From the NCBI GenBank assembly GCA_000091165.1, contig FP565575.1, forward strand, positions 630,001 through 662,000: DNA of 32,000 nucleotides, given 5' to 3'. The position numbers were made by a program, and so were the translations under genes. Under the pieces are notes generated by a model, which did no database searches, was not told where the DNA came from, and saw only the letters and a program-made list of their open reading frames with translations. The DNA is from Candidatus Methylomirabilis oxygeniifera. Lineage in GTDB: Bacteria; Methylomirabilota; Methylomirabilia; Methylomirabilales; Methylomirabilaceae. Position 1 is the stretch's first letter; each line of letters starts with the position of its first letter. Shown piece by piece: positions 4,505 to 20,855 of the stretch.

Positions 4505-4536
4505 CCTTCAGCCTTCAGCCTAAACACCTGAGTAGC
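4505..4536. repeat. Isolated C-arm copy of the REP-like element just upstream of dop
   Basis: CCTTCAGCCTTCAGCCTAAACACCTGAGTAG. The tail CCTAAACACCTGAGTAG matches CCTTAACACCTGAGTAG at 16557-16573, upstream of ankyrin paralog 5. Confidence 0.55.
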
Positions 4537-4541
4537 TACAC

Positions 4542-6026
4542 ATGGCGATCGAAAAGATCATGGGGACCGAGACCGAGTTAGGGATCAGCGCTAAGGATCC
4601 CCGCGGGTTCGATCCCGTGTCCGGCTCCATCCTGTTGATTAACAGTCATCGTCCCATCGCTGAGGTGAAGGCGATATGGGATTATACCAGTGAGAACCCG
4701 CTCCTCGATGCCCGCGGATTCGAGGTGAGCGGGGAGCGCGAAAGGCCGAGTCAACAGGATAACCGCACCATCAATAAGCTGCTTCGAAACGGGGGCCGCC
4801 TCTATGTCGATGGGGCCCATCCCGAATACTCGACGCCGGAGTGCGCGGCCGCCCGGGACGTCGTTTGTTACGAGAAGGCGGGCGAGCGGATCTTCGAGCT
4901 GTGCCTGGCCTCAGCCAACCTGACCTTGCCGGAGCGGCAACGGATCGTTGTCTACAAGAATAATAGTGACGGGAAGGGGAACAGCTACGGCCACCATGAA
5001 AACTACCTGATGGAACGGCGGGTTCCATTTGACCGGATTGTCCAGGGGCTCGCTCCGTTTCTGGCGACCCGTCAGATCTTTGCGGGCTCGGGGAAGGTCG
5101 GGGCCGAAAACGGCGGCGAGTGTTGCGACTTTCAGATCTCTCAACGGGCCGACTTCTTCGAAACTTTTATCGGTCTCGACACCATGGCCAAGCGTCCCAT
5201 CATCAACACCCGCGATGAGCCCCACGCCGACGAGGAGAAGTACCGCCGCCTGCACGTCATTGTCGGCGACTCCAACATGTCGGAGGTCGCGACCTATCTG
5301 AAGGTCGGCACCACCGCCATCGTCCTCGCCATGGTCGAGGACGGCGTCATCACACGCGACCTCGCCCTCGAGGACCCCGTCCGGGCCATCAAGGAGATCT
5401 CCCACGACATCACCTGCCGCCGCCGGGTGCGCCTGAAGCGCGGCAAGGAGTTCTCCGCCGTTGAGATTCAGCGGGAGTACCTCGACCTGGCCCTCGAGTA
5501 CTACCAGGGCCGCGAACGCAGCCCCCAGGTGGCCGACCTTCTCGAGAAGTGGCAGTACGTCCTGGACAAGCTGGCGGAGGACCCGATGACGCTCAACCGC
5601 GAGCTCGACTGGGTCATCAAACACGGACTCATCACCTCCTACATCGCCCGCAAGGGTTGCTCCTTCGACGACCAGCGCGTCTTCATGCTGGACCTGCAGT
5701 ATCATGATCTCCGTCGGGACAAGGGACTCTACTTTACTCTGGAGCGCCAGGGATATGTTGAGCGGATCGTGACTGACGAAGAGATTCTTATGGCCATGAA
5801 GACGCCTCCAGCGGATACACGGGCCTACTTCCGCGGAATGTGCCTCGAGAAGTATCCTGACGAGGTCTACGGGGCGAGTTGGAGTTCGGTGCTCTTCGAT
5901 ACCGGCGAGGCCGCGGTGAAACGGATTCCCATGACCGATCCGTTGAGGGGTACGCAGAAATTGGCGAGCGAACTGCTGGATCGCTCCGACACCGCCGCGG
6001 AGTTGTTGGAGAATATCGCGGTCTAG
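4542..6026 (+). CDS. dop: Pup deamidase/depupylase Dop (Dop/PafA carboxylate-amine ligase family)
   Basis: 494 aa with family motifs MGTETELG, HPEYSTPEC, NSYGHHENY, INTRDEPHADEEKYRRLHVIVGDSNMSE. It carries about 30 more residues than the downstream paralog between the N-terminal GxExE strand and HPEYxTPEC, which matches my recollection of the Dop-specific loop. Its position right after arc and before prcB is the canonical dop position. Residues about 220-389 lie in the block shared with pafA, so only the flanks discriminate the two genes. Confidence 0.85.
   Translation: MAIEKIMGTETELGISAKDPRGFDPVSGSILLINSHRPIAEVKAIWDYTSENPLLDARGFEVSGERERPSQQDNRTINKLLRNGGRLYVDGAHPEYSTPECAAARDVVCYEKAGERIFELCLASANLTLPERQRIVVYKNNSDGKGNSYGHHENYLMERRVPFDRIVQGLAPFLATRQIFAGSGKVGAENGGECCDFQISQRADFFETFIGLDTMAKRPIINTRDEPHADEEKYRRLHVIVGDSNMSEVATYLKVGTTAIVLAMVEDGVITRDLALEDPVRAIKEISHDITCRRRVRLKRGKEFSAVEIQREYLDLALEYYQGRERSPQVADLLEKWQYVLDKLAEDPMTLNRELDWVIKHGLITSYIARKGCSFDDQRVFMLDLQYHDLRRDKGLYFTLERQGYVERIVTDEEILMAMKTPPADTRAYFRGMCLEKYPDEVYGASWSSVLFDTGEAAVKRIPMTDPLRGTQKLASELLDRSDTAAELLENIAV
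5198..5707 (+). repeat. Copy A of a 510-bp perfect direct repeat (inside dop)
   Basis: Base-by-base comparison of 5198-5707 with 8280-8789 (offset 3082) found no mismatch. The flanking bases differ on both sides (c5197/g8279, t5708/c8790). The block is in frame in both genes. Confidence 0.97.
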
Positions 6027-6055
6027 CGCATACGCGCTCCATTCGGGATACCTAT

Positions 6056-6907
6056 ATGCACTCGTTGTTCGATTCCATAGTTCCAGGTTCGAGTTTTTTT
6101 GACCTGCTCCGGCAGTGTCGCTCGGACCTGCTGCCGCAGATGCCGATCAAGCCGGAAGGCCTGTCGCAGGTCGAGATCCGGGAGTTGATGGAGCAACCTC
6201 ATGGGACCACCATTCTCGCGATGAGGTTCCGAGATGGAGCCCTCATCGCGGGCGATCGGCAGGCGACTGAGGGTTATCAGATCTCGTCACGGCGAATCGA
6301 AAAGGTCTACAAGGCGGATCAGTACTCGGCCATCGCTATTGCCGGCGTCGCCGGTCCGTGCATCGAGATGGCCAAGCTGTTTGAAGTGGAGCTGACTCAC
6401 TACGAGAAGCTGGAAGGAATGTCGCTCTCGTTGGAGGGAAAGGCGAACAAGTTGTCTCAGATGGTCAAGGCCAATCTCCCGATGGCGATGCAGGGATTGG
6501 TGGTGATCCCGATCTTTGTCGGCTACGACGTCAGAAGCGGTGACGGTAAGATTTTCAAGTACGATGTCACCGGCGGCAGGTACGAGGAAACGGATTACTA
6601 CGCGACAGGCTCCGGCGGGAAGGACGCCCGCTCCACGATGAAAAAGCTGTATCGCGATCGTATGACTGAGGACGAGGCGATAGCAGTCGGGCTGGAGGCG
6701 CTGATTGACGCGGCGGAGGAGGACGTAGGGACCGGAGGCCCCGACTTTATTCGCGGAGTCTTTCCTACTGTCAAGCTGGCTGCTAAGGCGGGTCTGCAGG
6801 ATGTGCCGGAGATCCGCGTCAGAGAACTCTGCCAGGCTATTATCGATCGCCGCAAGCTGGTTGAGAGAGGGGCGAAGGGTGAGACCGGGGTGGGTGAGGT
6901 GAGCTGA
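6056..6907 (+). CDS. prcB: 20S proteasome beta subunit PrcB with propeptide
   Basis: Start taken at ATG 6056; the track start at 5879 overlaps dop. The sequence ...EQPHG/TTILAMRFRDGALIAGDRQATEG... carries the G/T autoprocessing site exposing Thr1. VELTHYEKLEG resembles mycobacterial PrcB from memory. The stop overlaps the prcA start (TGATG). Confidence 0.93.
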   Translation: MHSLFDSIVPGSSFFDLLRQCRSDLLPQMPIKPEGLSQVEIRELMEQPHGTTILAMRFRDGALIAGDRQATEGYQISSRRIEKVYKADQYSAIAIAGVAGPCIEMAKLFEVELTHYEKLEGMSLSLEGKANKLSQMVKANLPMAMQGLVVIPIFVGYDVRSGDGKIFKYDVTGGRYEETDYYATGSGGKDARSTMKKLYRDRMTEDEAIAVGLEALIDAAEEDVGTGGPDFIRGVFPTVKLAAKAGLQDVPEIRVRELCQAIIDRRKLVERGAKGETGVGEVS

Positions 6908-7602
6908 TGGCGCTTCCGTATTACGTGTCACCAGAGCAGATGATGCAGGATAAGGCGGAGTATGCCCGGAAGGGGATCGCCAGAGGAAAATCGATCATCG
7001 TTCTGGAATATGCTGACGGAATGATGCTGGTGGCTGAGAATCCCAGCGCGTCACTCAATAAGATCTCAGAGATTTACGACCGGATCGCCTTTGCCGGCGC
7101 CGGGCGGTACAGCGAGTTCGAAAATCTCCGGAAGGCGGGGATTCGGTATGCGGACCTGAAGGGGTTTGCGTATGACCGGGAAGACGTGACGGCCAAGTCG
7201 CTCGCCAATGCCTACTCTCAGACCATCGGCAATATTTTCAGCGAGGCGATGAAGCCGCTGGAGGTAGATATTTTAGTGGTAGAAGTGGCCGATGGCGGAG
7301 GACTGCCTAATGAGGTATATCGGATTGCCTTTGACGGCAGCATCTACGACGAGAAGGGGTTTGCTGCAATCGGCGGGCAGGCTGAAGAGATCAGGCAGCA
7401 CCTGAAGGACAAATACCAGACGGGACTTGATCGGAAGGCGGCTCTCAGGCTGGCTATACAGGCGCTGGAAGCCGTGAGCAGTACGAAGATCGAATCGAGA
7501 AGCCTGGAGGTGGCGATCCTGGAGCGCAGTCGCACGGGCCGGAAGTTCCGCCGCCTTTCCCAGGATGATCTCACGACAATTCTCACCGATACAGAGTCAT
7601 AG
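6907..7602 (+). CDS. prcA: 20S proteasome alpha subunit PrcA
   Basis: 231 aa. MALPYYVSPEQMMQDKAEYARKGIARGKSIIVLEYADGMMLVAENPSASLNKISEIYDRIAFAGAG closely parallels actinobacterial PrcA as I recall it. It is translationally coupled to prcB. Confidence 0.93.
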   Translation: MALPYYVSPEQMMQDKAEYARKGIARGKSIIVLEYADGMMLVAENPSASLNKISEIYDRIAFAGAGRYSEFENLRKAGIRYADLKGFAYDREDVTAKSLANAYSQTIGNIFSEAMKPLEVDILVVEVADGGGLPNEVYRIAFDGSIYDEKGFAAIGGQAEEIRQHLKDKYQTGLDRKAALRLAIQALEAVSSTKIESRSLEVAILERSRTGRKFRRLSQDDLTTILTDTES

Positions 7603-7666
7603 CTCCGCACGATTCTCCAGCCCCGCACCACGTACCTTAGACCTCGCACATATCTACGGAATTCCA

Positions 7667-7695
7667 TTGACCGTCACAGGGCCTTCCGGTACGAT
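7667..7695 (+). promoter_or_regulatory. Candidate internal promoter upstream of pafA
   Basis: TTGACC (7667-7672), a 17-nt spacer, then TACGAT (7690-7695). It lies in the 111-nt prcA-pafA gap, 18 nt upstream of ATG 7714. Confidence 0.35.
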
Positions 7696-7713
7696 GATAA
7701 TGGAGTCGTTGCC

Positions 7714-9072
7714 ATGCAGGAGCGTATCCTTGGACTGGAAAGCGAATACGGTCTGATCTCGTCCTCGGTCGGCGGGCGGGTGAACCTGTCGGTCGAAAGC
7801 GCACTGGGCTATCTCTTTGAAAAGGTGGTCTCGCGCCAGCGCGGGACCAACGACTTTCTGCGAAATGGCGCGCGCCTCTATCAGGATACCGGTTGTCATC
7901 CAGAGTATGCGACCCCCGAGTGCGATAACCCTCGGGACGTGGTCATCCACGACAAGGCGGGCGAGCGGATCGTGGAGGAGTTGCTCCTGAGCGCCGAGCA
8001 GAAGCTTCACGAGAATGGCATCTACTGCGACATCTACATCTTCAAGAACAATACGGACTCCGTCGGGAACACGTACGGCTGCCACGAGAACTATCTGGTG
8101 CAGCGCGGCGTGAATTTCCACAAGCTGGCAGAGCAGTTGATTCCCTTCTTCGTCACGCGTCAGGTTTTTGCGGGTGCAGGCAAGGTACTTCGGACGAGGA
8201 TGGGGAATCATTACTATATTTCACAGCGGGCGCAACATATCTACCAGGAGATCTCCGGCGCGACGACCAGCTCGCGCGGCATCATCAACACCCGCGATGA
8301 GCCCCACGCCGACGAGGAGAAGTACCGCCGCCTGCACGTCATTGTCGGCGACTCCAACATGTCGGAGGTCGCGACCTATCTGAAGGTCGGCACCACCGCC
8401 ATCGTCCTCGCCATGGTCGAGGACGGCGTCATCACACGCGACCTCGCCCTCGAGGACCCCGTCCGGGCCATCAAGGAGATCTCCCACGACATCACCTGCC
8501 GCCGCCGGGTGCGCCTGAAGCGCGGCAAGGAGTTCTCCGCCGTTGAGATTCAGCGGGAGTACCTCGACCTGGCCCTCGAGTACTACCAGGGCCGCGAACG
8601 CAGCCCCCAGGTGGCCGACCTTCTCGAGAAGTGGCAGTACGTCCTGGACAAGCTGGCGGAGGACCCGATGACGCTCAACCGCGAGCTCGACTGGGTCATC
8701 AAACACGGACTCATCACCTCCTACATCGCCCGCAAGGGTTGCTCCTTCGACGACCAGCGCGTCTTCATGCTGGACCTGCAGTATCATGACATCAAGCGAA
8801 CCCGCGGACTGTACTATCTCATGCTGCATGGTGACCTGATCGATCGGGTCATCACGGACGATGAGATCGAGACGGCCATGACGACGCCGCCGCAAACGAC
8901 GCGGGCCAAAGTACGAAGCGACTTTATCAGGTACGCGAATGAGAAGAATAAGTCGTACGATGTGGGCTGGAGCTACCTGAAGCTGAACGACCGGTATCAG
9001 CGAACCATCCTCTGTAAGGATCCGTTCAAACCCTGGGATCCGCGCGTGGATGAGTTGATCGGTCTGTCGTAG
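7714..9072 (+). CDS. pafA: Pup--protein ligase PafA (Dop/PafA family)
   Basis: 452 aa with motifs LGLESEYG, HPEYATPEC, NTYGCHENY, INTRDEPHADEEKYRRLHVIVGDSNMSE. It lacks the N-terminal insertion seen in the upstream paralog. Its position after prcA is canonical for pafA. Residues about 190-359 are encoded by the block identical to dop. Confidence 0.85.
   Translation: MQERILGLESEYGLISSSVGGRVNLSVESALGYLFEKVVSRQRGTNDFLRNGARLYQDTGCHPEYATPECDNPRDVVIHDKAGERIVEELLLSAEQKLHENGIYCDIYIFKNNTDSVGNTYGCHENYLVQRGVNFHKLAEQLIPFFVTRQVFAGAGKVLRTRMGNHYYISQRAQHIYQEISGATTSSRGIINTRDEPHADEEKYRRLHVIVGDSNMSEVATYLKVGTTAIVLAMVEDGVITRDLALEDPVRAIKEISHDITCRRRVRLKRGKEFSAVEIQREYLDLALEYYQGRERSPQVADLLEKWQYVLDKLAEDPMTLNRELDWVIKHGLITSYIARKGCSFDDQRVFMLDLQYHDIKRTRGLYYLMLHGDLIDRVITDDEIETAMTTPPQTTRAKVRSDFIRYANEKNKSYDVGWSYLKLNDRYQRTILCKDPFKPWDPRVDELIGLS
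8280..8789 (+). repeat. Copy B of the 510-bp perfect direct repeat (inside pafA)
   Basis: Identical to 5198-5707; see copy A. Confidence 0.97.
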
Positions 9073-10776: not shown

Positions 10777-11007
10777 CTAGACGGCGACGCATGTCACGGT
10801 TCGCATGACGCCTTTCAAGGTGCGAATTTTCGAGAGGACGACTGATCCGACCGTGCCGACATCAGTGGCCTCAACGCACGCGATGACGTCGTAGGGCCCG
10901 GTGACGGCATGCGCCGACTTTACTCCTTTGATCTTCTGTAACGCTTTTACGATGTTGGCCGTCTGATCCGACGCGCCTTCGATCAGGACATACGCCGTGG
11001 TTGTCAT
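10777..11007 (-). CDS. Stand-alone Lrp/AsnC ligand-binding (RAM) domain protein
   Basis: 76 aa. MTTTAYVLIEGASDQTANIVKALQKIKGVKSAHAVTGPYDVIACVEATDVGTVGSVVLSKIRTLKGVMRTVTCVAV follows the beta-alpha-beta-beta-alpha-beta pattern typical of the AsnC-type effector domain. It has no DNA-binding HTH. Confidence 0.7.
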   Translation of the reverse strand: MTTTAYVLIEGASDQTANIVKALQKIKGVKSAHAVTGPYDVIACVEATDVGTVGSVVLSKIRTLKGVMRTVTCVAV

Positions 11008-11099
11008 CGCGCATCCCTCCTTTTGGGTAACCGGCCGGCTGTGCGTCTCTGGTCATCCTTGTGCCCTGGTCAGTGACTGACGCGGGCGAATGAACGGTC

Positions 11100-11127
11100 T
11101 TGACTCGACGTATGTATACGATATATT
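11100..11127 (+). promoter_or_regulatory. Candidate sigma70-type promoter upstream of the MFS gene
   Basis: TTGACT (11100-11105), a 16-nt spacer, then TATATT (11122-11127). Confidence 0.35.
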
Positions 11128-11171
11128 TCAGTGATGCACAAGGAGAAAGACAGGGGGCTGACGGTACATAG

Positions 11172-12395
11172 ATGGATCGATCAGGCAAGAGTCACCTTGT
11201 AATGTTGTCGAGCCCGACCCGTGAGGCGCCGGATCGCTCTATTGACGACACGATTCCCAGCTTCAACTTTTTTGTGGCCTCTCTTTCGAATTTTTTCTTT
11301 TTCACGAATCTTAATGCCTTCAGTCTGCTTCCCCTGTATATCAAGACGCTTGGGGGAACCGAATCGCAGATCGGTTGGATCATGGGTAGCTACAGTCTGA
11401 CGGCCATTCTTGGACAGCCCGTAGCCGGGGTCCTTATTGACCGGTTCGGACGCAAACGATTCCTGCTGGTAGGATCGGCATTGGGGATGCTGGCCGCGAT
11501 CGGCTTTGCGTTCTCGACCTACCTGGATGCGCGATTCGTACTCTTTCGTATCCTGCAGGGCATCGGGTACTCCACCTTCTATATCGCGAATCTGACGCTG
11601 GTGTCTGAAATGGTTCCGTCGAGCCGTCGCGGGGAGGCGGTGGGCCTTTTCGGGATCTCCGGACTTATTACGATCGCGCTCTCTCCGGCGATCGGAGAGC
11701 AGGTCATCCATCGAGCCGGATATCCAACGTTCTTTTTGGCTGCCGCTGTCGCGGCGGCGGCCTGTCTGCTGACAAGTCTGGCGTTCCGCAATCTCCCATC
11801 GACATCCCGAGGCACTATCTCGTCGGGCTTCGCTTTCCTGATTCCATCCGCGCGCATCCTGCCGCCGATTCTCCTCTCGATGGTATTCGGCTTGGCCTCC
11901 GGGGCGGTGTTCGTATTTTTGCCGACTTACGCGATGCAGACGGGGTTGTCGCGGATCGGCGGGTTCTACATTGCATACAGCGTAGCGGCCGTCGGTATCC
12001 GATTAACCTGCGGTAAGCTGTCTGATCAATGGGGACGTCAGCGCGTGATTCTTCCCGCCCTGCTGCTTATGGCATCCGGCACCCTGGGTCTTGTCTGGCT
12101 CATTTCTCCGGTTGGTCTGCTGTTAATCGGAACGCTGACCGGAATGGCGCACGGCTTGCTGTTCCCGGCCCTGAGCGCCTATACAATCGATCTGGCGGAG
12201 TCGGATGGGCGCGGACGCGCCTTGGGTGCTTTCAGCACCGCTATGTTGCTGGGTCATGCGCTTGCAGCGTTCACATTCGGGATTGTCGCGGAGCAGTTCG
12301 GCTACCGGGCGATCTATCTTCTGGCTTCGGCCATTGCGATGACCACCTTCTGTGTATTATTGTGTGTCCGAAACAGGGCTCAGATAGTGCGATAG
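11172..12395 (+). CDS. MFS transporter
   Basis: 407 aa with about 12 hydrophobic segments. The MFS loop 2-3 motif is present as GVLIDRFGRKRFLL. The start could also be ATG 11202. Confidence 0.85.
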   Translation: MDRSGKSHLVMLSSPTREAPDRSIDDTIPSFNFFVASLSNFFFFTNLNAFSLLPLYIKTLGGTESQIGWIMGSYSLTAILGQPVAGVLIDRFGRKRFLLVGSALGMLAAIGFAFSTYLDARFVLFRILQGIGYSTFYIANLTLVSEMVPSSRRGEAVGLFGISGLITIALSPAIGEQVIHRAGYPTFFLAAAVAAAACLLTSLAFRNLPSTSRGTISSGFAFLIPSARILPPILLSMVFGLASGAVFVFLPTYAMQTGLSRIGGFYIAYSVAAVGIRLTCGKLSDQWGRQRVILPALLLMASGTLGLVWLISPVGLLLIGTLTGMAHGLLFPALSAYTIDLAESDGRGRALGAFSTAMLLGHALAAFTFGIVAEQFGYRAIYLLASAIAMTTFCVLLCVRNRAQIVR

Positions 12396-12529
12396 CCCGC
12401 GGTGTCGGAAGCGATAGATGAACGTGTTCATACTCGATATTCTCGATGTCCACGAGAGGCGGGCGCCACGGCGGGACGCTTCGGCAAGAGGGTGGACGGA
12501 CAGATGTGAGGAAGTGAAAGGGAGGGCAT

Positions 12530-13441
12530 ATGGGTTGGTTCAGCGCATTATGTGAGGGCGGCGGGAAATCCGGTAAAAGGCTCATCGAGGCCTCTAAATC
12601 AGGAACTGCGGAAACGGTCACGCGCCTGTTGACTGAAGGCGTTGATGCAAATGCGGGTGATCAACATGGCTGGACGGCACTGATGTATGCGTCCTGGCAT
12701 GGACGTTCCGGAATAGTGGAGCTGCTGCTCAAGCACGGCGTCGACGTACACGCAAAGGATCATAATGGCTGGACAGCCCTGATGCGTGCAGCGTGGAAAG
12801 GGTACGCCGGGATTGTAGAGCTGCTGCTCAAGCACGGCGCCGACGTACACGCAAAGGATCATAATGGCTGGACAGCCCTGATGCATGCCTCTTGGAGAGG
12901 GCATTCCGGGGCGGTAGAGCTGCTGCTTAAGCACGGCGCCGACGTACAGGTCAGAGATAAAGACGGCTGGACGTCGCTGATGCATGCGTCCGGTCATGGG
13001 CGCTCCAGGGCGGTAGAGCTGCTGCTTAAGCACGGCGCCGACGTACAGGTCAGAGATAAAGACGGCTGGACGGCGCTGATGCGTGCATCCTGGAACGGAC
13101 ATGCCGGGGTGGTCGCGATGCTGCTGAAGCATGACGCAGATCCGAACGTGAAGGATCAGAGCGGCTGGACGGCGCTGATGCGTGCGTCCTGGCGAGGACA
13201 TTCCGGGGTGGTCGCGATGCTGCTGAAGCATGACGCAGATCCGAACGTGAAGGATCAGAAGGATGGGACGGCCCTGACACACGCGTCCGAGAGAGGGCGT
13301 TTTAGAATTGTCGCGCTCCTGCTTCAGTACGGCGCCGATATGCACGTGAAGGATTATAAACGTCAGACGGCCCTGATGTACGCGTCTTTGCATGGGCATT
13401 CGAGAGTTGCAGAGCTGCTGCAGAGACACGCCGCGTCCTGA
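12530..13441 (+). CDS. Ankyrin-repeat protein, paralog 1 (303 aa, about 9 ANK modules)
   Basis: 33-aa periodicity of DxxGWTALMxASWxGHxxxVELLLKHGADV. N-terminus is MGWFSALCEGGGKSGKRLIEASKSG. SD GGGAGGG lies 4 nt upstream of the ATG. Confidence 0.9.
   Translation: MGWFSALCEGGGKSGKRLIEASKSGTAETVTRLLTEGVDANAGDQHGWTALMYASWHGRSGIVELLLKHGVDVHAKDHNGWTALMRAAWKGYAGIVELLLKHGADVHAKDHNGWTALMHASWRGHSGAVELLLKHGADVQVRDKDGWTSLMHASGHGRSRAVELLLKHGADVQVRDKDGWTALMRASWNGHAGVVAMLLKHDADPNVKDQSGWTALMRASWRGHSGVVAMLLKHDADPNVKDQKDGTALTHASERGRFRIVALLLQYGADMHVKDYKRQTALMYASLHGHSRVAELLQRHAAS
12719..13259 (+). repeat. Three adjacent pairs of near-identical 99-bp ANK-module duplications inside paralog 1
   Basis: 12719-12785 vs 12818-12884 is 66/67 identical. 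12909-12983 vs 13008-13082 is 74/75 identical. 13104-13160 vs 13203-13259 is 57/57 identical. All three pairs are offset by exactly 99 nt. Confidence 0.9.
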
Positions 13442-13625
13442 GAGCACGGCGCCGGATTTCACACATTGGAAATGTCTTGCTAAGCTGTATACTTGATTTG
13501 TATGGACCCTTTTGTAGGGTCTCGGAGTATGGGGGCGGCCGTCTCGAATCCGGCGTCCTGATCGGGGATCGACCGCAGCCGTGTGCGGGATGGGATAGAT
13601 GGGCTAGATGTGATAGGAGGGGGGT

Positions 13626-14339
13626 ATGGGTTTCTTTAGCGCATTATTTGAAAGTGATGAGAAGCCTGTTGATAAGCTTATTGAGGCGTCCAAATCCGGA
13701 GATATTGAAAAGGTGAAAAGGCTGCTGGCTGAAGGCGCTGACGTGCATGTGATTGATAAAGATGGCGTGACCGCTCTGATGCACGCGTCTGAGAATGGGC
13801 ATACTGAGGTTATGGAGCTACTGCTCAACAAAGGCGCTGATGTGAACGCCAGAGATAAACTTGGCTGGACGGCCTTGATGCAAGCGGCCTGGCATGGACA
13901 AGCCAAGGTGGCAGAGCTGCTGCTCAATCAGGGCGCCGATGTCAATGCGCAGGCCGTGAGTGGCGCGACCGCCTTGATACGCGCGTCCGAGAAAGGACAT
14001 GCCGGGGTTGTCGGACTGCTGCTCATTCGAGGTGTTGATGTGGACGCAAAGGCGGGAGACGGCGCGACCGCCCTGATACGCGCGGCCTGGCATGGACATG
14101 CCGGGGTTGTCGGACTCCTGCTCAATCACGGCGCTGATGTGGATGCGAGAGACAACAACCGTGCGACCGCCCTGATACGCGCGGCCTGGCATGGACATGC
14201 CAAGGTGGCGGAGCTGCTGCTCAATAAAGGCGCTGATGTGAGCGCGAAGGATAATATGAATGCGACGGCCTGGATGTATGCCTCCCAGAATAAACTTTCT
14301 AAGATTGCTGAACTGCTGGACAGACACGGCGCGCGCTAA
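13626..14339 (+). CDS. Ankyrin-repeat protein, paralog 2 (237 aa, about 7 modules)
   Basis: N-terminus MGFFSALFESDEKPVDKLIEASKSGDIEKVKRLLAEGADV, followed by ANK modules. SD AGGAGGGG lies just upstream. Confidence 0.9.
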   Translation: MGFFSALFESDEKPVDKLIEASKSGDIEKVKRLLAEGADVHVIDKDGVTALMHASENGHTEVMELLLNKGADVNARDKLGWTALMQAAWHGQAKVAELLLNQGADVNAQAVSGATALIRASEKGHAGVVGLLLIRGVDVDAKAGDGATALIRAAWHGHAGVVGLLLNHGADVDARDNNRATALIRAAWHGHAKVAELLLNKGADVSAKDNMNATAWMYASQNKLSKIAELLDRHGAR

Positions 14340-14383
14340 GATGCAAAGAAGCGATCGGCGTTCGGCGATTAAGGGATAGGAGT

Positions 14384-14457
14384 ATAGGCTGAAGACCGAA
14401 GGCTGAAGGATCCTCACAATCTTCCACCTTCAGCCTATTTACCTTCAGCCTTCAGTC
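14384..14457. repeat. REP-like palindromic spacer (AGGCTGAAGG / CCTTCAGCCT arms) between paralogs 2 and 3
   Basis: G-arms ATAGGCTGAAG (14384-14394) and AAGGCTGAAGGA (14399-14410) face C-arms CCTTCAGCCTAT (14427-14438) and ACCTTCAGCCTTCAG (14441-14455). Confidence 0.6.
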
Positions 14458-14505
14458 TGGTACTGACCCCTGACAGCTTTGTTTTCGAAGGAAGAGGGAG
14501 GTTGT

Positions 14506-15417
14506 ATGGGTTTCCTGAGCTCATTATTTGGGAGTGGTGGGAAGCGTGGTAAAAGGCTGATCGAGGCGTCCAAATCCGGAGAAACCGGAAAAGTTAAGAG
14601 CCTGTTGGCCGAAGGCGCCGATGTGAATGCGATAGATGGGGACGGCTGGACAGCCCTGATGCATGCATCGTGGGTCGGACATCTTACGGTTGTCGAAGCG
14701 CTGCTCGATCGTGGCGCTGATGTGAACGTGCAGGATAAGAATGGGGGGACGGCACTGATCCGGGCGGCCTGGAAAGAACACGCCCGTGTGGTGGAGAGGC
14801 TTCTCGCGAAAGGCGCTGAGGTTGACGTAAAGGATAAAGATAGCTTTAGCGCGCTGATGCGTGCGGCATGGAATGGCCGTTTCGGAGTGATAGAGATACT
14901 CCTCAATAACGGAGCAGTTGTGGATGCGAGGGACAAATTTGGTTGTACGGCCCTCATACGCGCGTCGTTGAATGGCCATACCAGGATTGCGGAACTCCTG
15001 CTCGATCGAGGCGCGGACCTGAACGCGCTGGATCAACATGGCGGGACGGCGCTGATACATGCCGCCGCGCAGGGCCATACCGGGGTTGCGGAGCTCCTGC
15101 TCGATCGAGGCGCGGACCTGAACGTACGGGATCAATACAGCAGGACGGCGCTGATACGGGCCGCCGCGCATGGCCATACCGGGGTTGCAGAACTCCTGAT
15201 CAATCGAGGCGCGGACCTGAACGTACGGGATCAACATGGCGGGACGGCGCTGATACGGGCCGCCGCGCATGGCCATACCGGGGTTGCGGAACTCCTGCTC
15301 GATCGAGGCGCGGACCTGAACATGTGGGATGCCGATGGCGGGACGGCTTTGGAGCGCGCATCTTTGAATGGACACCTTAAGATGTTGGAACTGTTGAAGA
15401 AGTATGGGGCACAGTAA
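14506..15417 (+). CDS. Ankyrin-repeat protein, paralog 3 (303 aa)
   Basis: Start moved to ATG 14506 (GAGGGAGG SD 5 nt upstream), so the N-terminus is MGFLSSLFGSGGKRGKRLIEASKSG as in the other paralogs. ANK periodicity runs throughout. Confidence 0.9.
   Translation: MGFLSSLFGSGGKRGKRLIEASKSGETGKVKSLLAEGADVNAIDGDGWTALMHASWVGHLTVVEALLDRGADVNVQDKNGGTALIRAAWKEHARVVERLLAKGAEVDVKDKDSFSALMRAAWNGRFGVIEILLNNGAVVDARDKFGCTALIRASLNGHTRIAELLLDRGADLNALDQHGGTALIHAAAQGHTGVAELLLDRGADLNVRDQYSRTALIRAAAHGHTGVAELLINRGADLNVRDQHGGTALIRAAAHGHTGVAELLLDRGADLNMWDADGGTALERASLNGHLKMLELLKKYGAQ
14974..15370 (+). repeat. Four consecutive highly similar 99-bp ANK modules inside paralog 3
   Basis: GGCCATACC recurs at 14974, 15073, 15172 and 15271. 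GHTGVAELLLDRGADLNVRDQ-type units share long identical runs. Confidence 0.85.
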
Positions 15418-15437
15418 GATTAAAAAAAGTGATCAGC

Positions 15438-15500
15438 TATAGGCGGAAGAGGCTGAAGGCAGATAGACTGAAGGCGTTGAGTATTCTTCAGTCTTCAGCG
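15438..15500. repeat. REP-like palindromic spacer between paralogs 3 and 4
   Basis: G-arms AGGCGGAAG, AGGCTGAAGG and AGACTGAAGG face C-arms CTTCAGTCTTCAGCG. A GCTGAGCGCTGATCGCT motif follows at 15526-15542. Confidence 0.6.
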
Positions 15501-15564
15501 TAACCCTTTGCTTTTGTGGCTGACGGCTGAGCGCTGATCGCTATGCTCTCAGAAAGGAGGGTAT

Positions 15565-16476
15565 ATGGGTTTATTTGGGTCACTATTTGAGGGTGGTGGA
15601 AAGCATGGCGCAAAGCTCATCGCGGCGTCTCAATCCGGAGAGACCGATAAAGTCAAGAGCCTGTTGGCTGACGGCGCCGATGTCAATGCGAAGGATCGCG
15701 AGGGCTGGACGGCTCTGATGCATGCGTCCTGGCATGGACATGCCGAGGCGGCAGCGGCACTGCTCGATCGTGGCGCTGACGTGGGGACGACGGATAACAA
15801 TGGTGGGACCGCTCTGATACGCGCGTCCTGGCATGGGCATGTCGAGATTGCGGAGCGACTGATCGCGAAAGGCGCCGATGTCAACGTGAGCGACAAAGAC
15901 AGCTTTACGTCCCTCATGTATGCGTCCGAGAATGGGCACGTGAAGGTCGTAGAGCTGCTGCTCACGCACGGCGCCGCTATCGACGCCAGGGCCGGTAATG
16001 GCCGGACGGTTCTGATGATGGCGTCTGCGGAAGGATATACTGAGGTGGTAGACCTGCTGATCAGTAAGGGCGCCGACGTCAATGTCTGGGACAAGACCGG
16101 CTGGACGGTCCTGATGTATGCATCCGGGAAGGGGCATACCGGGATTGCAGAGCGGCTGCTCGCGAAAGGCGCCGATCCGAATGCGAAGGATAGTAATAGT
16201 GTCACAGCCCTGATGCGTGCGGCTGTGAATGGGCGTTTCGGGGTCGCAGAACTGCTGCTCAAACACGGCGCCGATCTGAATGCGAAGGATAGTAATAGCG
16301 TCACAGCCCTGATGTATGCGGCCGGGAAAGGACATGCGAAGGTTGTAGAGTTACTGCTCACGCAAGGCGCGGACGTGAACGTCAAGGCGAATGATGGCGG
16401 GACGGCCCTGGAGTATGCGCATTGGCATGGGTATGATGACGTTACGGAGCTGCTTGAGAAACACGGGGCGCACTGA
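15565..16476 (+). CDS. Ankyrin-repeat protein, paralog 4 (303 aa)
   Basis: N-terminus MGLFGSLFEGGGKHGAKLIAASQSGETDKVKSLLADGADV, followed by ANK modules. SD AAAGGAGGG lies upstream. Confidence 0.9.
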   Translation: MGLFGSLFEGGGKHGAKLIAASQSGETDKVKSLLADGADVNAKDREGWTALMHASWHGHAEAAAALLDRGADVGTTDNNGGTALIRASWHGHVEIAERLIAKGADVNVSDKDSFTSLMYASENGHVKVVELLLTHGAAIDARAGNGRTVLMMASAEGYTEVVDLLISKGADVNVWDKTGWTVLMYASGKGHTGIAERLLAKGADPNAKDSNSVTALMRAAVNGRFGVAELLLKHGADLNAKDSNSVTALMYAAGKGHAKVVELLLTQGADVNVKANDGGTALEYAHWHGYDDVTELLEKHGAH

Positions 16477-16483
16477 GTGGGAG

Positions 16484-16575
16484 TAAGGCTGAAGGGATTT
16501 AGGCTGAAGGAGGATAGGCTTCAAGGCGCTATTCCTAAAAGCCTAACAGCCTACAGCCTTAACACCTGAGTAGTT
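16484..16575. repeat. REP-like palindromic spacer between paralogs 4 and 5
   Basis: Tandem G-arms TAAGGCTGAAGGGATT, TAGGCTGAAGGAGGAT and AGGCTTCAAGG occupy 16484-16526. A degenerate C-arm GCCTAACAGCCTACAGCCTTAACACCTGAGTAG follows. Confidence 0.6.
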
Positions 16576-16590
16576 GCGAAAGGAGGCACT

Positions 16591-17502
16591 ATGGGTTTCC
16601 TTAGCTCATTATTTGGGGATAGTGGGAAGCCTGTCGATAGGCTCATCGAGGCGTCGAAGTCCGGAGACATCGAAAAAGTCAAGCGCCTGCTGGCCGAAGG
16701 CGCCGATGTGAACGAGAGAGATGCGGATGGCTGGACGGCCCTGACACATGCGTCCTGGCATGGCCATGCCCCGGTTGTCGAGCTGCTGCTGAATAAAGGC
16801 GCCGATGTGCATGTGAGAGACAATAAAGGCTTTTTGGTTTTGATTCATGCGTCTTGGAGGGGGCATGTGGAGGTTGTCGAGCTGCTGCTGAATAAAGGCG
16901 CCGATGTGCATGTGAGGAATGAAGACGGCGGGATAGCCCTGATGCGTGCGTCCGAGAAAGGGCATACCCCGGTGGTCGAGTTACTGTTGAATAAAGGCGC
17001 CGATGTCAACATGAGGGATCAGAATGGTTGGACTTCCCTGATGCGAGCGTCCTGGTATGGGCATGCCCCGGTGGTCGAGCTACTGTTGAATAAAGGCGCC
17101 GATGTCAACGTGAGAGATCAGAATAGCGGAACGCCCCTGATGCATGCGTCCAAACATGGATATGCCCCAGTAGTCGAGCTGCTCCTGACTCAAAGCGCTG
17201 ATGTGAATGCCAAGGCGGGTAGTGGCGTGACCGCCCTGATGTATGCATCTGAGTATGGATATGCCGGGATTGTCGAGCTGCTCCTGGCTCAAAGCGCTGA
17301 TGTGAATGCCAAGGCGGATAATGGCGCGACCGCCCTGATGCTGGCGTCTGGGAACGGGCATACCGGGTGTGTGGAGCGGCTCCTGACTCAAGGCGCTGAT
17401 GTGAAGGCGAAGGATTATAATCGTCGGACGGCCCTGATGTATGCCACGTCTAACGGGCATACTCAGGTAGCTGAGCTGTTGCAGAAGCACGATACACACT
17501 GA
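16591..17502 (+). CDS. Ankyrin-repeat protein, paralog 5 (303 aa)
   Basis: N-terminus MGFLSSLFGDSGKPVDRLIEASKSGDIEKVKRLLAEGADV, followed by ANK modules. SD AAAGGAGG lies upstream. Confidence 0.9.
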   Translation: MGFLSSLFGDSGKPVDRLIEASKSGDIEKVKRLLAEGADVNERDADGWTALTHASWHGHAPVVELLLNKGADVHVRDNKGFLVLIHASWRGHVEVVELLLNKGADVHVRNEDGGIALMRASEKGHTPVVELLLNKGADVNMRDQNGWTSLMRASWYGHAPVVELLLNKGADVNVRDQNSGTPLMHASKHGYAPVVELLLTQSADVNAKAGSGVTALMYASEYGYAGIVELLLAQSADVNAKADNGATALMLASGNGHTGCVERLLTQGADVKAKDYNRRTALMYATSNGHTQVAELLQKHDTH

Positions 17503-17508
17503 GTCGGA

Positions 17509-17592
17509 GTATAGGCTGAGGACTGTTAGCCTTCTAGGGGTCGCACCTTGAAGTCTATCCTCCTTCAGCCTAAATCCCTTCAGCCTATTTAC
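17509..17592. repeat. REP-like palindromic spacer between paralogs 5 and 6
   Basis: 17546-17588 is the reverse complement of 16484-16526 (40/43 identical by my alignment). CCTTCAGCCTATTTACCTT is also present at 14427-14445. Confidence 0.65.
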
Positions 17593-17608
17593 CTTGAAAG
17601 GAGGCACT

Positions 17609-18427
17609 ATGGGTCTTTTCGGACAATTATTTGGCGGGGGAGGTGACAAGCCTGCCGGCAACCTTATCGATGCAGCTAAATATGGAGAGGTAGAAAAAGT
17701 TAAGAGCCTGTTAGCTGAAGGCGCCGACGTGAACGCGAAGGATCTGGATGGGTGGACGGCCCTGATGCGCGCGGCCTGGCGTGGAGATATCGGGATTGCA
17801 GAGCTGCTGCTCAACAAGAGCGCCGACGTGAACGCGGGTGATAAACAGAACTGGACAGCCCTGATGCATGCGTCCGAGAATGGGCATCCGGAGATTGCAA
17901 AGCTGTTGCTCAGTAAGAACGCCGATGTGAATGTCAGGGCGACCAATGGCGCAACGACCCTGATCATCGCGTCTGCCAACGGGCATACCGAGATCGTCAA
18001 ACTTCTGCTCGAGAAGGGGCCCGAAGTGAACGTGCAGGCGAATGATGGCGGGACGGCTCTGATGCGTTCGGCTGCGAACGGGCATACCGAGATCGTCACC
18101 CTGCTGCTCGATAAAGGTGCGGATGTCAACATCAGGGATCGAAAAGGCGAAACGCCGCTGATGCGTACGTCTGCGGAAGGGCAGTTGGGGCTCGTCACGA
18201 TGCTGCTGGAGAAGGGGGCTGATGTGAACGCGCAGGCGATTAAAGGCGAGACCGCCCTGATGTATGCGGCGTGGTATGGGCGTATGGGGGTTGTCAAGCT
18301 GCTACTCAGTCACGGCGCTGATGTGTATCTTAAGGATAGCAACAAAGGTGAGAACGCCAGAGGATATGCGTACGGGAACGGACATGAGGACATCGCCCTG
18401 CTGCTGGAGAAGCACGCGGCGCAGTGA
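17609..18427 (+). CDS. Ankyrin-repeat protein, paralog 6 (272 aa, about 8 modules)
   Basis: Start moved to ATG 17609 (AAAGGAGG SD), giving MGLFGQLFGGGGDKPAGNLIDAAKYGEVEKVKSLLAEGADV. ANK modules run throughout. Confidence 0.9.
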   Translation: MGLFGQLFGGGGDKPAGNLIDAAKYGEVEKVKSLLAEGADVNAKDLDGWTALMRAAWRGDIGIAELLLNKSADVNAGDKQNWTALMHASENGHPEIAKLLLSKNADVNVRATNGATTLIIASANGHTEIVKLLLEKGPEVNVQANDGGTALMRSAANGHTEIVTLLLDKGADVNIRDRKGETPLMRTSAEGQLGLVTMLLEKGADVNAQAIKGETALMYAAWYGRMGVVKLLLSHGADVYLKDSNKGENARGYAYGNGHEDIALLLEKHAAQ

Positions 18428-18857
18428 GACGACGCTGCAGAATGTCACATATAGCCCCCTCTATCGAGAGCCTGTTCCGGACTCAACCTGGGGGGTGAGC
18501 GTGGGTTTTCCCTTGAACTCAGCGTAATCTCTCTGATAAGTGTGTCAGCCATTTCTGCCACCATCTCCCGCTTGATGCCCTCTTCGGTTCTGGCGTCGTG
18601 AAATACCAGAGAGGGCCGAGCCGGGTGCGACGCACGCGGTCATGTCGCGCATCGCGCTCAAGGGGTTCCCGGAAAGACCGGGCAGGAGGAAACCGTGGTT
18701 GCACCTGGGCTGGATACGTTCCGGGTGGCCCGCTTCAAAGTCGCGCCTGAAGCGAGGGGCCGGCTCCGCCTTCTCGATCACACGGGTTCCGTCCTCTGCC
18801 TCTCGCACATCGGCCCGCGCGGTGACGGCGCGCGCCGGACGCGCCGGAGTGCGGGAC

Positions 18858-20855
18858 ATGTCTGAGGATCTTAGCCCGAAGTATCAGATCACCACCCCGG
18901 ACGATGCCTACTGGCGCCAACAGATCAAGTGCCAGGACGCCTGCCCCGTACACACGGATGCCCGCGGCTACGTGAACGCGATCGCCGACGGCGATCCCGA
19001 GCGCGCGTACATCATTGCCCGCGAGCCGAATCCTTTCGCCTCGATTTGCGGCCGGGTGTGCGCCGCGCCCTGCGAAGCCGCCTGCCGCCGGGGCGATCTT
19101 GACGCGCCTATCGCCATCCGCGCCCTTAAGCGCTTCGTGACCGAGCGCTACGGCGTGGAGGCCCCGCTGCGGGCCGACCGGGCCCGCCCGTCGATCGAGG
19201 CGACGGGTCTCCACCTGGTGGAGGCAAGCCCGATCGTCCGGGAGATCCGAAACGTCGAGGACGCCACCGCCCTGCGGCGGGTCGGCCTGGCCGAGCACGC
19301 GGGGACGGGCAAGCGCGTGGCCGTGGTCGGCTCCGGCGTGGCGGGCCTGACCTGCGCGCACGACCTGGCCCTGCTCGGGTATCGGGTGACGGTCTTCGAG
19401 AAGCAGACGGTCCCTGGCGGGATGCTCATGCTCGGCGTCCCCGAGTACCGCCTCCCCCGGGACCTGGTGCGGGCAGAGATCCAGGCCATCCTCGACCTGG
19501 GCGTGGAGCTGAAGACGAACGCAGCCATCGGGCGGGACTTCGCGCTGGCCGACCTGCGGGCCCAGGGCTTTGAGGCAACGTTCCTGGCCATCGGGTGTCA
19601 CAAGGCGCGTGGGCTCCCGATCGAGGGAACCGAACTGGACGGCGTCTTCCGGGCGGTGGAGTTCCTCCTCAATATCAACCTCGGCTTCAAGGTCGACCTG
19701 GGCCGGCGCGTGATCGTGGTGGGCGGCGGGGACGTGGCGATGGACGCGGCCCGCACTGCCGCCCGCGAGATGGCCGGGGTGGATCCCGTCGCGGCCATGC
19801 GCGAGGCCATGGACGTCGCCCGCGAGGCAGTCCGCGCGGGCGCCCGCGAGGTGCGGGTCGTCTGTCTCGAGTCCTGGGACGAGATGCCGGCCCAGCGCTT
19901 CGAGATCGAGGAGGCCCTGGCGGAGGGGCTCGCTATCTTCCCGCGCCTCGGACCGAAGCGCATTGTGGGTCAGGAGGGCAGGGCGGTCGGCCTGGAGACG
20001 ATCCGCGTGAGCCGCGTCTTCGACGAGCAGCGACGCTTCAGCCCCCGGTTCGTGGAAGGGACGGAGCAGGTGATGGCCGCCGACTCGATCATCCTGGCTA
20101 TCGGGCAGGCGCCGGACCTGGCGTTCCTCGGTCCAGAGGATGGCGTTGCGATCACCCCCCGCCAGACGATCCAGGTAGACTCGGCCACGCTGGCTACCAC
20201 CGCGCCCGGGGTGTACGCCGGCGGCGATGTGGCGTTCGGCCCGCGCATTTTCATCGAGGGTGTCGCCAACGGGCACCGCGCAGCCCGCTCCATCCACGAA
20301 TATCTGAGCGACCGGCGCTTTGCCCTCTCGACCAGGGCGGAGTGGGTCCGCCTCGATCACGACCGCCAGGTCCTGCAGGGAGAGGCCGGAACCGAGCCGG
20401 CCTTGCCGCGCGTGTATCCCGGCTATCGGGCGACGCCGCGCCGCGAGCCGCCTGGACTGCCCATCGACCGGCGCATCGGAATCGCCGAAGTGGAACTGAA
20501 GTACCCGGACACCCAGGCCCAGGCCCAGGCCCAGCGCTGCGTCCGGTGCGGGATCCACACGATCTTCGACGGCACAACGTGTATCCTGTGCGGCGGGTGC
20601 GTGGATGTCTGCCCCGAGTACTGCCTGCGTATGGTTCCCATCGACCAACTCGCCGGCGACGATGCCGTGACGTCCCTCGTTGAATCGCTCACCGGTTCCC
20701 CGCAATCCGCAACCCCCGTCGCGGCCTCAGCCGCCACCGCGATGCTCATGGATGCGACCCGCTGTATCCGCTGCGCCCTGTGCGCGATGCGGTGTCCCAC
20801 GGGCGCCATCAGCATGGAGGCGTTTCGCTATGTCGAAACCTGGGTCCTCGCCTGA
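18858..20855 (+). CDS. GltD-like (glutamate synthase small-subunit family) NAD(P)H:acceptor oxidoreductase with C-terminal 2x[4Fe-4S] ferredoxin domain
   Basis: Start taken at ATG 18858 (MSEDLSPKYQ...); the track's upstream extension looks like noncoding read-through. An N-terminal Cys cluster (CQDACPVHTD...ICGRVCAAPCEAACRRG) is followed by a dinucleotide fold VAVVGSGVAGLTCAHDLALLGYRVTVFEKQTVPGGMLMLGVPEYRLPR and a second fold VIVVGGGDVAMDAART. The C-terminus carries CVRCG...CILCGGCVDVCP and CIRCALCAMRCP. Confidence 0.85.
   Translation: MSEDLSPKYQITTPDDAYWRQQIKCQDACPVHTDARGYVNAIADGDPERAYIIAREPNPFASICGRVCAAPCEAACRRGDLDAPIAIRALKRFVTERYGVEAPLRADRARPSIEATGLHLVEASPIVREIRNVEDATALRRVGLAEHAGTGKRVAVVGSGVAGLTCAHDLALLGYRVTVFEKQTVPGGMLMLGVPEYRLPRDLVRAEIQAILDLGVELKTNAAIGRDFALADLRAQGFEATFLAIGCHKARGLPIEGTELDGVFRAVEFLLNINLGFKVDLGRRVIVVGGGDVAMDAARTAAREMAGVDPVAAMREAMDVAREAVRAGAREVRVVCLESWDEMPAQRFEIEEALAEGLAIFPRLGPKRIVGQEGRAVGLETIRVSRVFDEQRRFSPRFVEGTEQVMAADSIILAIGQAPDLAFLGPEDGVAITPRQTIQVDSATLATTAPGVYAGGDVAFGPRIFIEGVANGHRAARSIHEYLSDRRFALSTRAEWVRLDHDRQVLQGEAGTEPALPRVYPGYRATPRREPPGLPIDRRIGIAEVELKYPDTQAQAQAQRCVRCGIHTIFDGTTCILCGGCVDVCPEYCLRMVPIDQLAGDDAVTSLVESLTGSPQSATPVAASAATAMLMDATRCIRCALCAMRCPTGAISMEAFRYVETWVLA

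Follow-up and report, generated by a model that had tools for sequence, protein, structure and literature searches.

A conserved tandem array of six ankyrin-repeat genes with a shared N-terminal tail and paralogue-specific grooves in Candidatus Methylomirabilis oxygeniifera

Six consecutive genes, here called A1 to A6, of Candidatus Methylomirabilis oxygeniifera, a methane-oxidising bacterium of the NC10 lineage, encode proteins built almost entirely of ankyrin (ANK) repeats and form a tandem array at positions 12530-18427, on the + strand, of the 32,000-nucleotide stretch of contig FP565575.1 that was analysed (the window). The array is conserved in related genomes, its members share an N-terminal tail of some 13 residues, and the surfaces predicted to bind ligands differ from one paralogue to the next while being kept within each. 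We propose that the six genes represent a genus-conserved family of cytoplasmic adaptors, in which the tail would provide a shared membrane tether and each groove would hold a ligand particular to that paralogue. The model as a whole is given a probability of about 40%. Confidence is higher in one part of it, that the proteins are functional intracellular binders with distinct specificities, and lower in the membrane tether. ANK proteins are common, and the one relative of the array that was checked is named 'ankyrin repeat domain-containing protein' by NCBI; a literature search found no paper discussing ANK proteins in Methylomirabilis, the one article in which both names occur being an unrelated review. 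What is new is the architecture of the subfamily, namely a conserved tandem array, an anchor-like tail encoded with fixed rare codons and paralogue-specific grooves lined with tryptophan.

The original prediction, made from the DNA alone, had described six tandem, co-oriented ANK genes of 303, 237, 303, 303, 303 and 272 amino acids (aa), each with a strong Shine-Dalgarno (SD) sequence. Both points were borne out, by open reading frames (ORFs) of these sizes on the + strand and by an AAGGAGG or GGGAGG element 5-8 nt 5' of the ATG of all six genes. A1 (12530-13441, 303 aa) carries the tail MGWFSALCEGGGK followed by nine repeats and is the paralogue richest in tryptophan (12 Trp). A2 (13626-14339, 237 aa) has the tail MGFFSALFESDEK and seven repeats, and nine repeats follow the tail in each of A3 (14506-15417, 303 aa, MGFLSSLFGSGGK), A4 (15565-16476, 303 aa, MGLFGSLFEGGGK) and A5 (16591-17502, 303 aa, MGFLSSLFGDSGK). 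A6 (17609-18427, 272 aa), the most divergent of the paralogues, has the tail MGLFGQLFGGGGDK and eight repeats. For A3 and A6 the list of ORFs offers in-frame TTG starts further upstream; the ATG preceded by the SD sequence is the start kept in every relative. Gaps between the genes measure 106-184 nt, the GC content of the array is like that of its upstream neighbours, and its GC skew is strongly positive (0.14-0.24). The minus strand of the array also holds long stop-free ORFs, at 12599-13462, 14524-15375, 15583-16385 and 17080-18297, the last of which is the longest at 405 aa. These were rejected as genes because the conserved frames, the SD sites and the ratios of nonsynonymous to synonymous substitution (dN/dS) all point to the + strand, and they look like by-products of a repetitive, stop-poor composition.

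A Pfam search of the six proteins returned ANK families only (E 1e-50 to 1e-98), with scores above the gathering thresholds in every case (Ank_2, 167-322 bits against a cut-off of 27.3; Ank, 155-226 bits against a cut-off of 21.1). When cut every 33 residues the proteins divide, with zero insertions or deletions, into an N-terminal peptide of 13-14 aa and 9, 7, 9, 9, 9 and 8 units of 33 aa, in the order N-terminal capping repeat, internal repeats and C-terminal cap. An AlphaFold model of A1 (pLDDT 93.9, pTM 0.89) contains 18 paired helices arranged in a solenoid modelled with high confidence, with residues 1-11 disordered (pLDDT <50) and undocked from the ANK domain. A Foldseek search with this model found matches to DARPins and to ankyrin-1 with TM scores of up to 0.92. 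The DARPins are the best matches of the array proteins in PDB (40-44% identity, TM up to 0.92) and have in common with them idealised 33-aa repeats free of insertions, N- and C-terminal caps and a variability focused on the same surface positions. Unlike DARPins the array proteins are natural, are longer (7-9 repeats) and carry the extra N-terminal tail, and they differ in the repeat signature, which is TALM/TALI in the array and TPLH in DARPins, and in the unusual frequency of tryptophan at two positions of the groove. As natural, very regular and consensus-like ANK scaffolds they may interest protein engineers. Of natural proteins, ankyrin-1 and AnkB match best in structure, through their membrane-binding domains (TM 0.85-0.91, 32-33% identity). 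Eukaryotic ankyrins act as adaptors and take up extended stretches of membrane proteins in their inner groove, which is the model that we propose for the array, but they have 24 repeats together with spectrin-binding and death domains and are without an N-terminal hydrophobic tail. The likeness is one of repeat fold, and homology beyond the fold cannot be claimed. We picture each array protein as a rigid, consensus-like solenoid of 7-9 repeats with a predicted concave groove rich in Trp, Arg, His and Tyr.

Relatives of the array were gathered by scanning species-representative genomes with the protein of the adjacent major facilitator superfamily (MFS) transporter gene, and metagenomes with A4. 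The family was found on eight further contigs (L003, L004, L007, L008, L009, L010, L011 and L023), giving with the window nine sources and a set of 40 members; the metagenome ANK loci from L012 onward are without the N-terminal motif, with the exception of L023, which has it. All 40 members are intact save for two that are cut by contig ends, and the lengths of 204, 237-239, 270-272 or 303-304 aa correspond to 6, 7, 8 and 9 repeats. A neighbour-joining tree of the less repeat-prone ends resolved clear groups of orthologues for A1 to A6, in the same gene order. The orthologues of A1 are L003_1 and L004_1. Those of A2 were found in L003, L007, L008, L009 and L011 (dN/dS 0.15-0.19), with eight repeats (270 aa) in L008, L009 and L011 and six (204 aa) in L023_1. 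A3 has orthologues in L003, L007, L008 and L009 that are 75-88% identical across the end regions (dN/dS 0.19), A4 has orthologues in the same four contigs (dN/dS 0.34), and A5 has them in L007, L008 and L009. The orthologue of A6, L007_5, is 89% identical across the end regions. The exact A5 protein is also present on WBTX01000003.1 (GCA_009026205.1), where the array occupies about 31.8-37.7 kb, and on ENA contig Methylomirabilis_oxyfera_contig_159. A further group of orthologues, absent from the window, comprises L004_2 (5141-6052 of its contig), L009_1 (6832-7743) and L011_2 (5403-6314), and L011 seems to have two A4-like copies. Lineages thus differ in the genes that make up the array, even though four of them have six. 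Since the groups are stable and stand in the same order, the duplications came before the sampled lineages diverged, and were followed by some gain and loss.

Across the orthologue groups dN/dS, calculated by the Nei-Gojobori method, falls within 0.15-0.34; the adjacent MFS gene gives 0.15-0.16. These values argue for functional genes, and the possibility of decaying copies was rejected, all copies being intact and dN/dS well below 1. The original prediction had inferred purifying selection from the N-terminal regions of A2 and A5, where codons 13-40 (84 nt) do contain 14 synonymous codon differences (15 nt) and one nonsynonymous difference (K to R). That inference is sustained by the orthologue ratios, none of which is near 1, and by relatives whose lengths correspond to whole numbers of repeats. 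Of the 45 repeats in the window, 36 find their nearest match in an orthologue's repeat of the same number. The exceptions are repeats 2-7 of A1 and 4-6 of A5, which are more like a neighbouring repeat within their own gene, and the A1 pairs 2/3, 4/5 and 6/7 (12629-13222) show 82-93% DNA identity to each other versus 73-82% to the orthologous repeats. This pattern indicates probable local duplication or gene conversion, recent in A1, which would account for the higher dS of that gene. The history that we propose is one in which the family would have grown by tandem gene duplication before the sampled lineages split and would still be changing, by gain and loss of genes, by gain and loss of repeats and by local homogenisation of adjacent repeats.

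For the analysis of ligand specificity the groove was defined a priori as the positions randomised in designed ANK binders, which in the register used here are 2, 10, 11, 30, 32 and 33. Between orthologues dN/dS is 0.17 at the groove versus 0.24 in the framework formed by the remaining positions. At positions 2, 7, 10 and 11 the proportion of nonsynonymous differences (pN) is 0.07-0.09 between orthologues and 0.37-0.45 between paralogues, and positions 14, 15, 22 and 23 of the outer helix are variable in both comparisons. Tryptophan is found at position 2 of 37% of repeats and at position 10 of 41%; the corresponding figures for a set of 120 generic ANK proteins are 14% and less than 6%. At position 7, Arg, His or Tyr predominates. 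A groove that is kept within orthologues and differs across paralogues fits distinct, stable ligands rather than an arms race, and arms-race evolution was rejected on the conservation of the binding positions between orthologues. The pattern of substitution suggests that each paralogue has its own stable cellular ligand, which would probably be a protein or an extended peptide.

Across paralogues the tail varies far less than the grooves do. In the 40 members it reads M-G-[F/L/W]-[F/L/I]-[S/G]-[S/A]-L-F-[E/G]-G-G-G-K, with M and G in 40/40, L7 and F8 in 39/40 and then GGG and K in 33/40. The six proteins of the window conform to MG[FLW][FL][SG]xL[FC]xxxxK, and Cys is found at position 8 only in A1. 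The original prediction had held that the proteins have neither a signal peptide nor any other recognisable domain. The first half stands, since the first ANK helix of the model begins at residue 10 and leaves no room for a signal peptide; the second half needs correcting, as all six share the N-terminal peptide. A signal peptide or lipoprotein was rejected, there being no lipobox and only 13-14 residues before the N-cap, where a Sec/Tat signal would take about 20 or more with a hydrophobic core and a cleavage site; many generic bacterial ANK matches have N-termini that resemble signal peptides, and the array family does not. N-myristoylation at Gly2 was also rejected: the PROSITE pattern PS00008, G-{EDRKHPFYW}-x(2)-[STAGCN]-{P}, fits 5/40 tails, and the residue after Gly2 is mostly Phe.

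The tail has the features by which an ANCHR/Arf-type peptide is recognised in sequence, that is, a cluster of bulky hydrophobic residues at the extreme N-terminus with a flexible link to a folded domain; the ESCRT-III ANCHR and Arf-type peptides are treated here as a functional class and not as a homology family. The N-terminal peptide of CHMP4B is regarded as a membrane anchor and curvature sensor (PMC5357790), and the ANCHR motif of ESCRT-III has been described as a membrane anchor (PMC4720517; PMC8970359). CHMP4B(1-13), MSVFGKLFGAGGG, shares 7-8/13 residues with the family tails (A6 8/13, A4 7/13), and a run of the form F-G-x-L-F-G-x-G-G is common to it and to A6 (MGLFGQLFGGGGD). The tail also resembles the N-termini of the Arf/Arl proteins, among which ARL1 starts with MGGFFSSIFSSL and ARF4 with MGLTISSLFSRL (PMC2063696). 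The start of ARF1 is MGNIFANLFKGL. Like the CHMP4B/Snf7 and Arf/Arl peptides, the array tail places paired bulky hydrophobic residues at the extreme N-terminus. It sits on an ANK solenoid, whereas that of CHMP4B sits on an Snf7 domain and that of Arf on a GTPase domain, and the array proteins are not members of the ESCRT-III or Arf families. The organism is a bacterium without N-myristoyltransferase targets. The likeness extends over 13 residues of low complexity, may be convergent or due to chance and is not taken as a sign of homology. On the model favoured here the flexible 13-residue tail would bring all paralogues to one common place or partner. The likeliest place would be the inner face of the cytoplasmic membrane, with shallow insertion of the Phe/Leu cluster as in the CHMP4B/Snf7 and Arf/Arl anchors. 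In a bolder form of this model, which we regard as rather unlikely, the array proteins would be bacterial ankyrins in the functional sense: tethered adaptors with an ESCRT-III/Arf-like peptide and Trp-lined grooves, each groove holding a different complex of the membrane or envelope. Candidate complexes are methane monooxygenase, respiratory complexes and shape-determining structures.

Several points weigh against a tethered adaptor. The tail is short and its helical hydrophobic moment modest (0.17-0.30), the AlphaFold model shows no helix for it, and the isolated CHMP4B peptide was neither helical nor membrane-remodelling in vitro (PMC5357790). Part of the conservation of the tail lies at synonymous sites and may reflect a constraint on the mRNA rather than on the peptide. 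No 'ankyrin' entry was found in the four supplementary data sets examined for evidence of expression, and our view of the distribution of the family and of the tail on other proteins is bounded by the approximately 0.6 Mb of related sequence examined. Among non-ANK ORFs in the 0.62 Mb scanned for the tail motif there was none that carried it, the sole match (L043) being weak and on an unrelated contig. A search of PDB sequences with the 20-residue tail gave no match. The homologues recovered with full-length A5 were all long generic ANK proteins that lack the tail and do not exceed 53% identity, and a profile search with the first 60 residues against 1.84 billion representatives was dominated by giant multi-repeat proteins. 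A 40-residue N-terminal query found four short fragments only, one of them named Methylomirabilis by its source, and an exact cluster look-up found none of the six array proteins.

The nucleotide sequence that encodes the tail forms, together with the SD sequence, a conserved translation-start block that spans the first 13 codons and lies at 12518-12568 in A1 and, on the same + strand, at 13614-13664, 14494-14544, 15553-15603, 16579-16629 and 17597-17650 in A2 to A6. The consensus from the 40 members is AAAGGAGGtt.T ATGGGTTTC.TT.GCTCATTATTTGagGGtGGtGGgAAG, with information content near its maximum from the SD sequence to +39. Codon usage in the block departs from that in the rest of the genes. 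Gly2 is encoded by GGT in 38/40 members versus 7% of Gly codons elsewhere, Ser6 by TCA in 30/31 (2% of Ser codons), Leu7 by TTA in 32/39 (2% of Leu codons) and Phe8 by TTT in 39/39 (51% of Phe codons), and GC content at third codon positions (GC3) is 0.38 in codons 2-9 versus 0.63 elsewhere. Position 6 keeps xCA while its residue switches between S and A. With rare codons thus fixed at synonymous positions, a constraint on the RNA is superimposed on that acting on the peptide. The latter is still visible because positions 3 and 4 use 5-8 codons and yet always encode F, L, I or W. Synonymous conservation of the first 13 codons could reflect a constraint on translation initiation, a rare-codon ramp or a shared regulatory site.

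The original prediction had placed the array about 3.5 kb downstream of the proteasome operon, and it does begin 3.46 kb past the end of pafA (9072). Upstream of the array in the window are genes for the proteasomal ATPase (Mpa), two members of the Pup-ligase family (Dop/PafA), PrcB/PrcA and an M17 leucyl aminopeptidase. No obvious pup gene was seen between dop and prcB (4317-4541, 6026-6200); the listed start of prcB is a TTG that overlaps dop, and the real one probably lies further downstream. Immediately upstream, the array has an invariant neighbour in the MFS transporter gene (11172-12395, + strand, Pfam MFS_1), which is separated from it by a gap of 134 nt and is itself preceded by a promoter-like site (11100-11127). 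Between the proteasome/M17 genes and the MFS-ANK block lies a gene of 76 aa on the - strand (10777-11007) with an AsnC-type ligand-binding domain, recognised by Pfam AsnC_trans_reg on the gene called in L001/L002; it is a stand-alone AsnC-type (RAM) domain without a DNA-binding domain. A check of synteny and copy number in relatives found the same array in at least five other contigs (L003, L004, L008, L009 and L011), where orthologues of PafA, M17 and MFS stand directly 5' of it. On the 3' side the window has genes for an NAD(P)-binding iron-sulfur flavoprotein, a Rieske protein, cytochrome b and cytochrome c. At this border L009 has an inserted PIN-domain gene (12073-12474) and then bc-complex genes, L008 a type III-B CRISPR-Cas cluster (13316-20735: Cas6, Cmr2/Cas10, Cmr3, RAMPs), L011 a LysR regulator (11031-11945) and L007 unrelated genes, namely an ORF of 251 aa without a Pfam match, followed by a LysR-like ORF. 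The downstream neighbours vary and the upstream ones are kept, which therefore puts the array at the edge of a conserved block beside a variable region. A functional link between the array and the NAD(P)-oxidoreductase/Rieske/cytochrome b genes was rejected on the different downstream neighbours in L007, L008 and L011 and on the PIN gene that intervenes in L009. Between 19000 and 24000 of the window, where these oxidoreductase, Rieske and cytochrome b/c genes lie, GC content is 64-72% (68-72% in four of five 1-kb windows) versus 56-61% elsewhere in the window. The encoded proteins are 94-96% identical to those of L009, whereas the flanking M17 and MFS proteins are only 80-86% identical. The cluster may have been recently acquired or exchanged, or may be under unusual constraint.

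A second repeated element lies between the array genes. Allowing at most one mismatch, the window contains 20 occurrences of the unit AGGCTGAAGG and its complement versus 2.0 expected, and the repeat is also present at 4505-4521. Units of AGGCTGAAGG and CCTTCAGCCT, set 7 or 15 nt from one another, make up long, imperfectly paired hairpins in all but one of the five gaps within the array: between A2 and A3 (14386-14458, minimum free energy -55 kcal/mol, z = -2.3), A3 and A4 (15450-15500, z = -4.5), A4 and A5 (16484-16561, z = -4.8) and A5 and A6 (17512-17586, z = -3.5). The same two units fill the array gaps of L003 and L007 and partly those of L009, and are absent in L004, L008 and L011. The AGGCTGAAGG units may be a REP-type element particular to some lineages, or an RNA stem between cistrons.

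The strongest rival to the model is an explanation of the conserved gene start at the level of RNA, although we still consider it unlikely. The proteins would then be soluble cytosolic ANK binders without a tether, and the gene start would be mainly an RNA element, in the form of an AU-rich, weakly structured initiation region, a rare-codon ramp or a site through which a regulator or small RNA controls the paralogues together. The rare codons fixed at synonymous tail sites (GGT, TCA and TTA, and also the invariant TTT), the low GC3, the near-maximal information content and the xCA kept at position 6 are all consistent with this. Against it, the many codons used at positions 3 and 4 for hydrophobic residues alone point to selection on the peptide itself, codons 2-12 show a shortfall of synonymous differences among the paralogues of the window (26% versus 38%) that is not significant (p = 0.12), and an Rfam scan of the window gave no family match. 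It could also be argued that the array proteins are effectors directed at eukaryotes, which would reach protist grazers or hosts and mimic host proteins with their ANK repeats, as in Legionella, Coxiella, Wolbachia and sponge symbionts, the MG start serving as a lipidation or Arf-like signal. ANK proteins are enriched in host-associated bacteria but are present in all lifestyles, and among species with at least four ANK proteins 28% of the free-living ones have six (PMC3932732). The original prediction that such an expansion is unusual outside host-associated bacteria is only partly upheld. The 7-9 repeats per array protein exceed the mean of 4.6 for free-living bacteria. The Dot/Icm, Wolbachia and sponge-symbiont proteins are, like those of the array, largely made of ANK repeats and often form multi-copy families, the best-scoring NCBIfam models include Legionella Dot/Icm Ank effectors, and the tail resembles the N-termini of eukaryotic Arf/Arl and CHMP4B. 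However, such effectors tend to have fewer repeats, joined to other domains and to secretion signals, whereas the array proteins consist of ANK repeats alone, have no signal peptide and are under purifying selection. The models T4SS_AnkH, AnkY, AnkG, AnkX, AnkF, AnkI and AnkC all score far below cut-off (best 125.5 against 600 bits), the small number of tails that fit the N-myristoylation pattern does not favour lipidation, and no secretion-system gene was found in the 32-kb window or in the related loci examined. The array lies in a genus-wide syntenic core with a GC content matching its upstream neighbours, and there is no excess of replacement at the binding positions between orthologues (dN/dS 0.17). 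An effector role is accordingly judged improbable.

The proximity of the proteasome genes had led the original prediction to mention gankyrin, by its own account as speculation, and an accessory role in the Pup-proteasome system, which we hold to be about as improbable as an effector role, would have the array proteins serve the Mpa/ARC ATPase or the 20S core as substrate adaptors or as chaperones of assembly. Gankyrin/PSMD10 (Nas6) is a small protein that consists only of ANK repeats, seven in number, and is a chaperone of the ATPase ring of the eukaryotic proteasome. In a variant of this idea the proteins would be conditional substrates, the tail acting as an N-degron after removal of Met and trimming of Gly, perhaps by the M17 aminopeptidase; Phe and Leu are classical bacterial N-degron residues, and Phe or Leu would be the next residue of the tail once Met and Gly were lost. 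The order pafA - M17 - MFS - ANK array is kept in the five contigs named above, with Mpa, Dop/PafA and PrcB/PrcA upstream in the window, but this synteny is seen inside one genus, where nearly everything is syntenic, and proximity within that genus is the sole evidence for the parallel. Three genes intervene (the minus-strand gene, M17 and MFS), with the promoter-like site before MFS, similarity to gankyrin beyond the ANK fold is not demonstrable with repeat proteins, and to our knowledge the proteasome clusters of actinobacteria and Nitrospira are without ANK genes. The idea of a proteasome link has accordingly not gained from the comparison. An anti-phage defence locus akin to the ANK-containing PADLOC candidates PDC-M72 and MZA is less probable still. 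The PADLOC models PDC-M72A (E 1e-45 to 1e-73), 'Ankyrin' and MzaA match all six proteins, and the variable right border holds the type III-B CRISPR-Cas cluster in L008, the PIN toxin in L009 and, further downstream in the contig of the window (L001/L002), toxin-antitoxin genes. These matches are explained by the ANK repeats themselves: they fall on the repeats only, that of PDC-M72A covers part of the profile as expected for any ANK protein, and MzaA is a sigma-factor protein (sigma-70 family) of 726 aa, of which only model positions 21-90 were matched with a score of 162.5 against a cut-off of 800 bits. Neither an effector domain (nuclease, protease, NTPase or TIR) nor a non-ANK partner gene is found inside the array, and the orthologue groups are stable, syntenic and under purifying selection, unlike typical defence islands. 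A single distant relative (40% identity) was found in viral contigs, and a phage origin of the array was rejected on the same ground. We likewise see very little likelihood that the ligand of the grooves is something other than protein, for example an oligonucleotide, polyphosphate or a lipid head group, in the manner of the RNase L ANK domain with 2-5A. That domain is among the structural matches (TM 0.82), and Trp at positions 2 and 10 with Arg, His or Tyr at position 7 would provide stacking-plus-cationic chemistry. The argument is one of composition only, aromatic and cationic residues are a usual feature of ANK surfaces that bind proteins as well, and six paralogues with differing grooves suit diverse protein targets better.

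Methylomirabilis removes methane and nitrite in anoxic waters and has not yet been grown in pure culture. The array implies no mechanism or unusual genetic system, and its interest is therefore set below the original estimate; if none of the readings discussed here holds, it would be one more lineage-specific expansion of a common repeat protein. As a genus-wide family of at least six members with one tail and paralogue-specific grooves, it offers testable handles on the interior of the cell. If the tail is a membrane anchor, the family would be a bacterial example of the adaptor principle of eukaryotic ankyrins and an independent use of an anchor like those of CHMP4B and Arf. If the array proteins are indeed ankyrins in the functional sense, they would point to a protein-based organisation of the Methylomirabilis cytoplasmic membrane.

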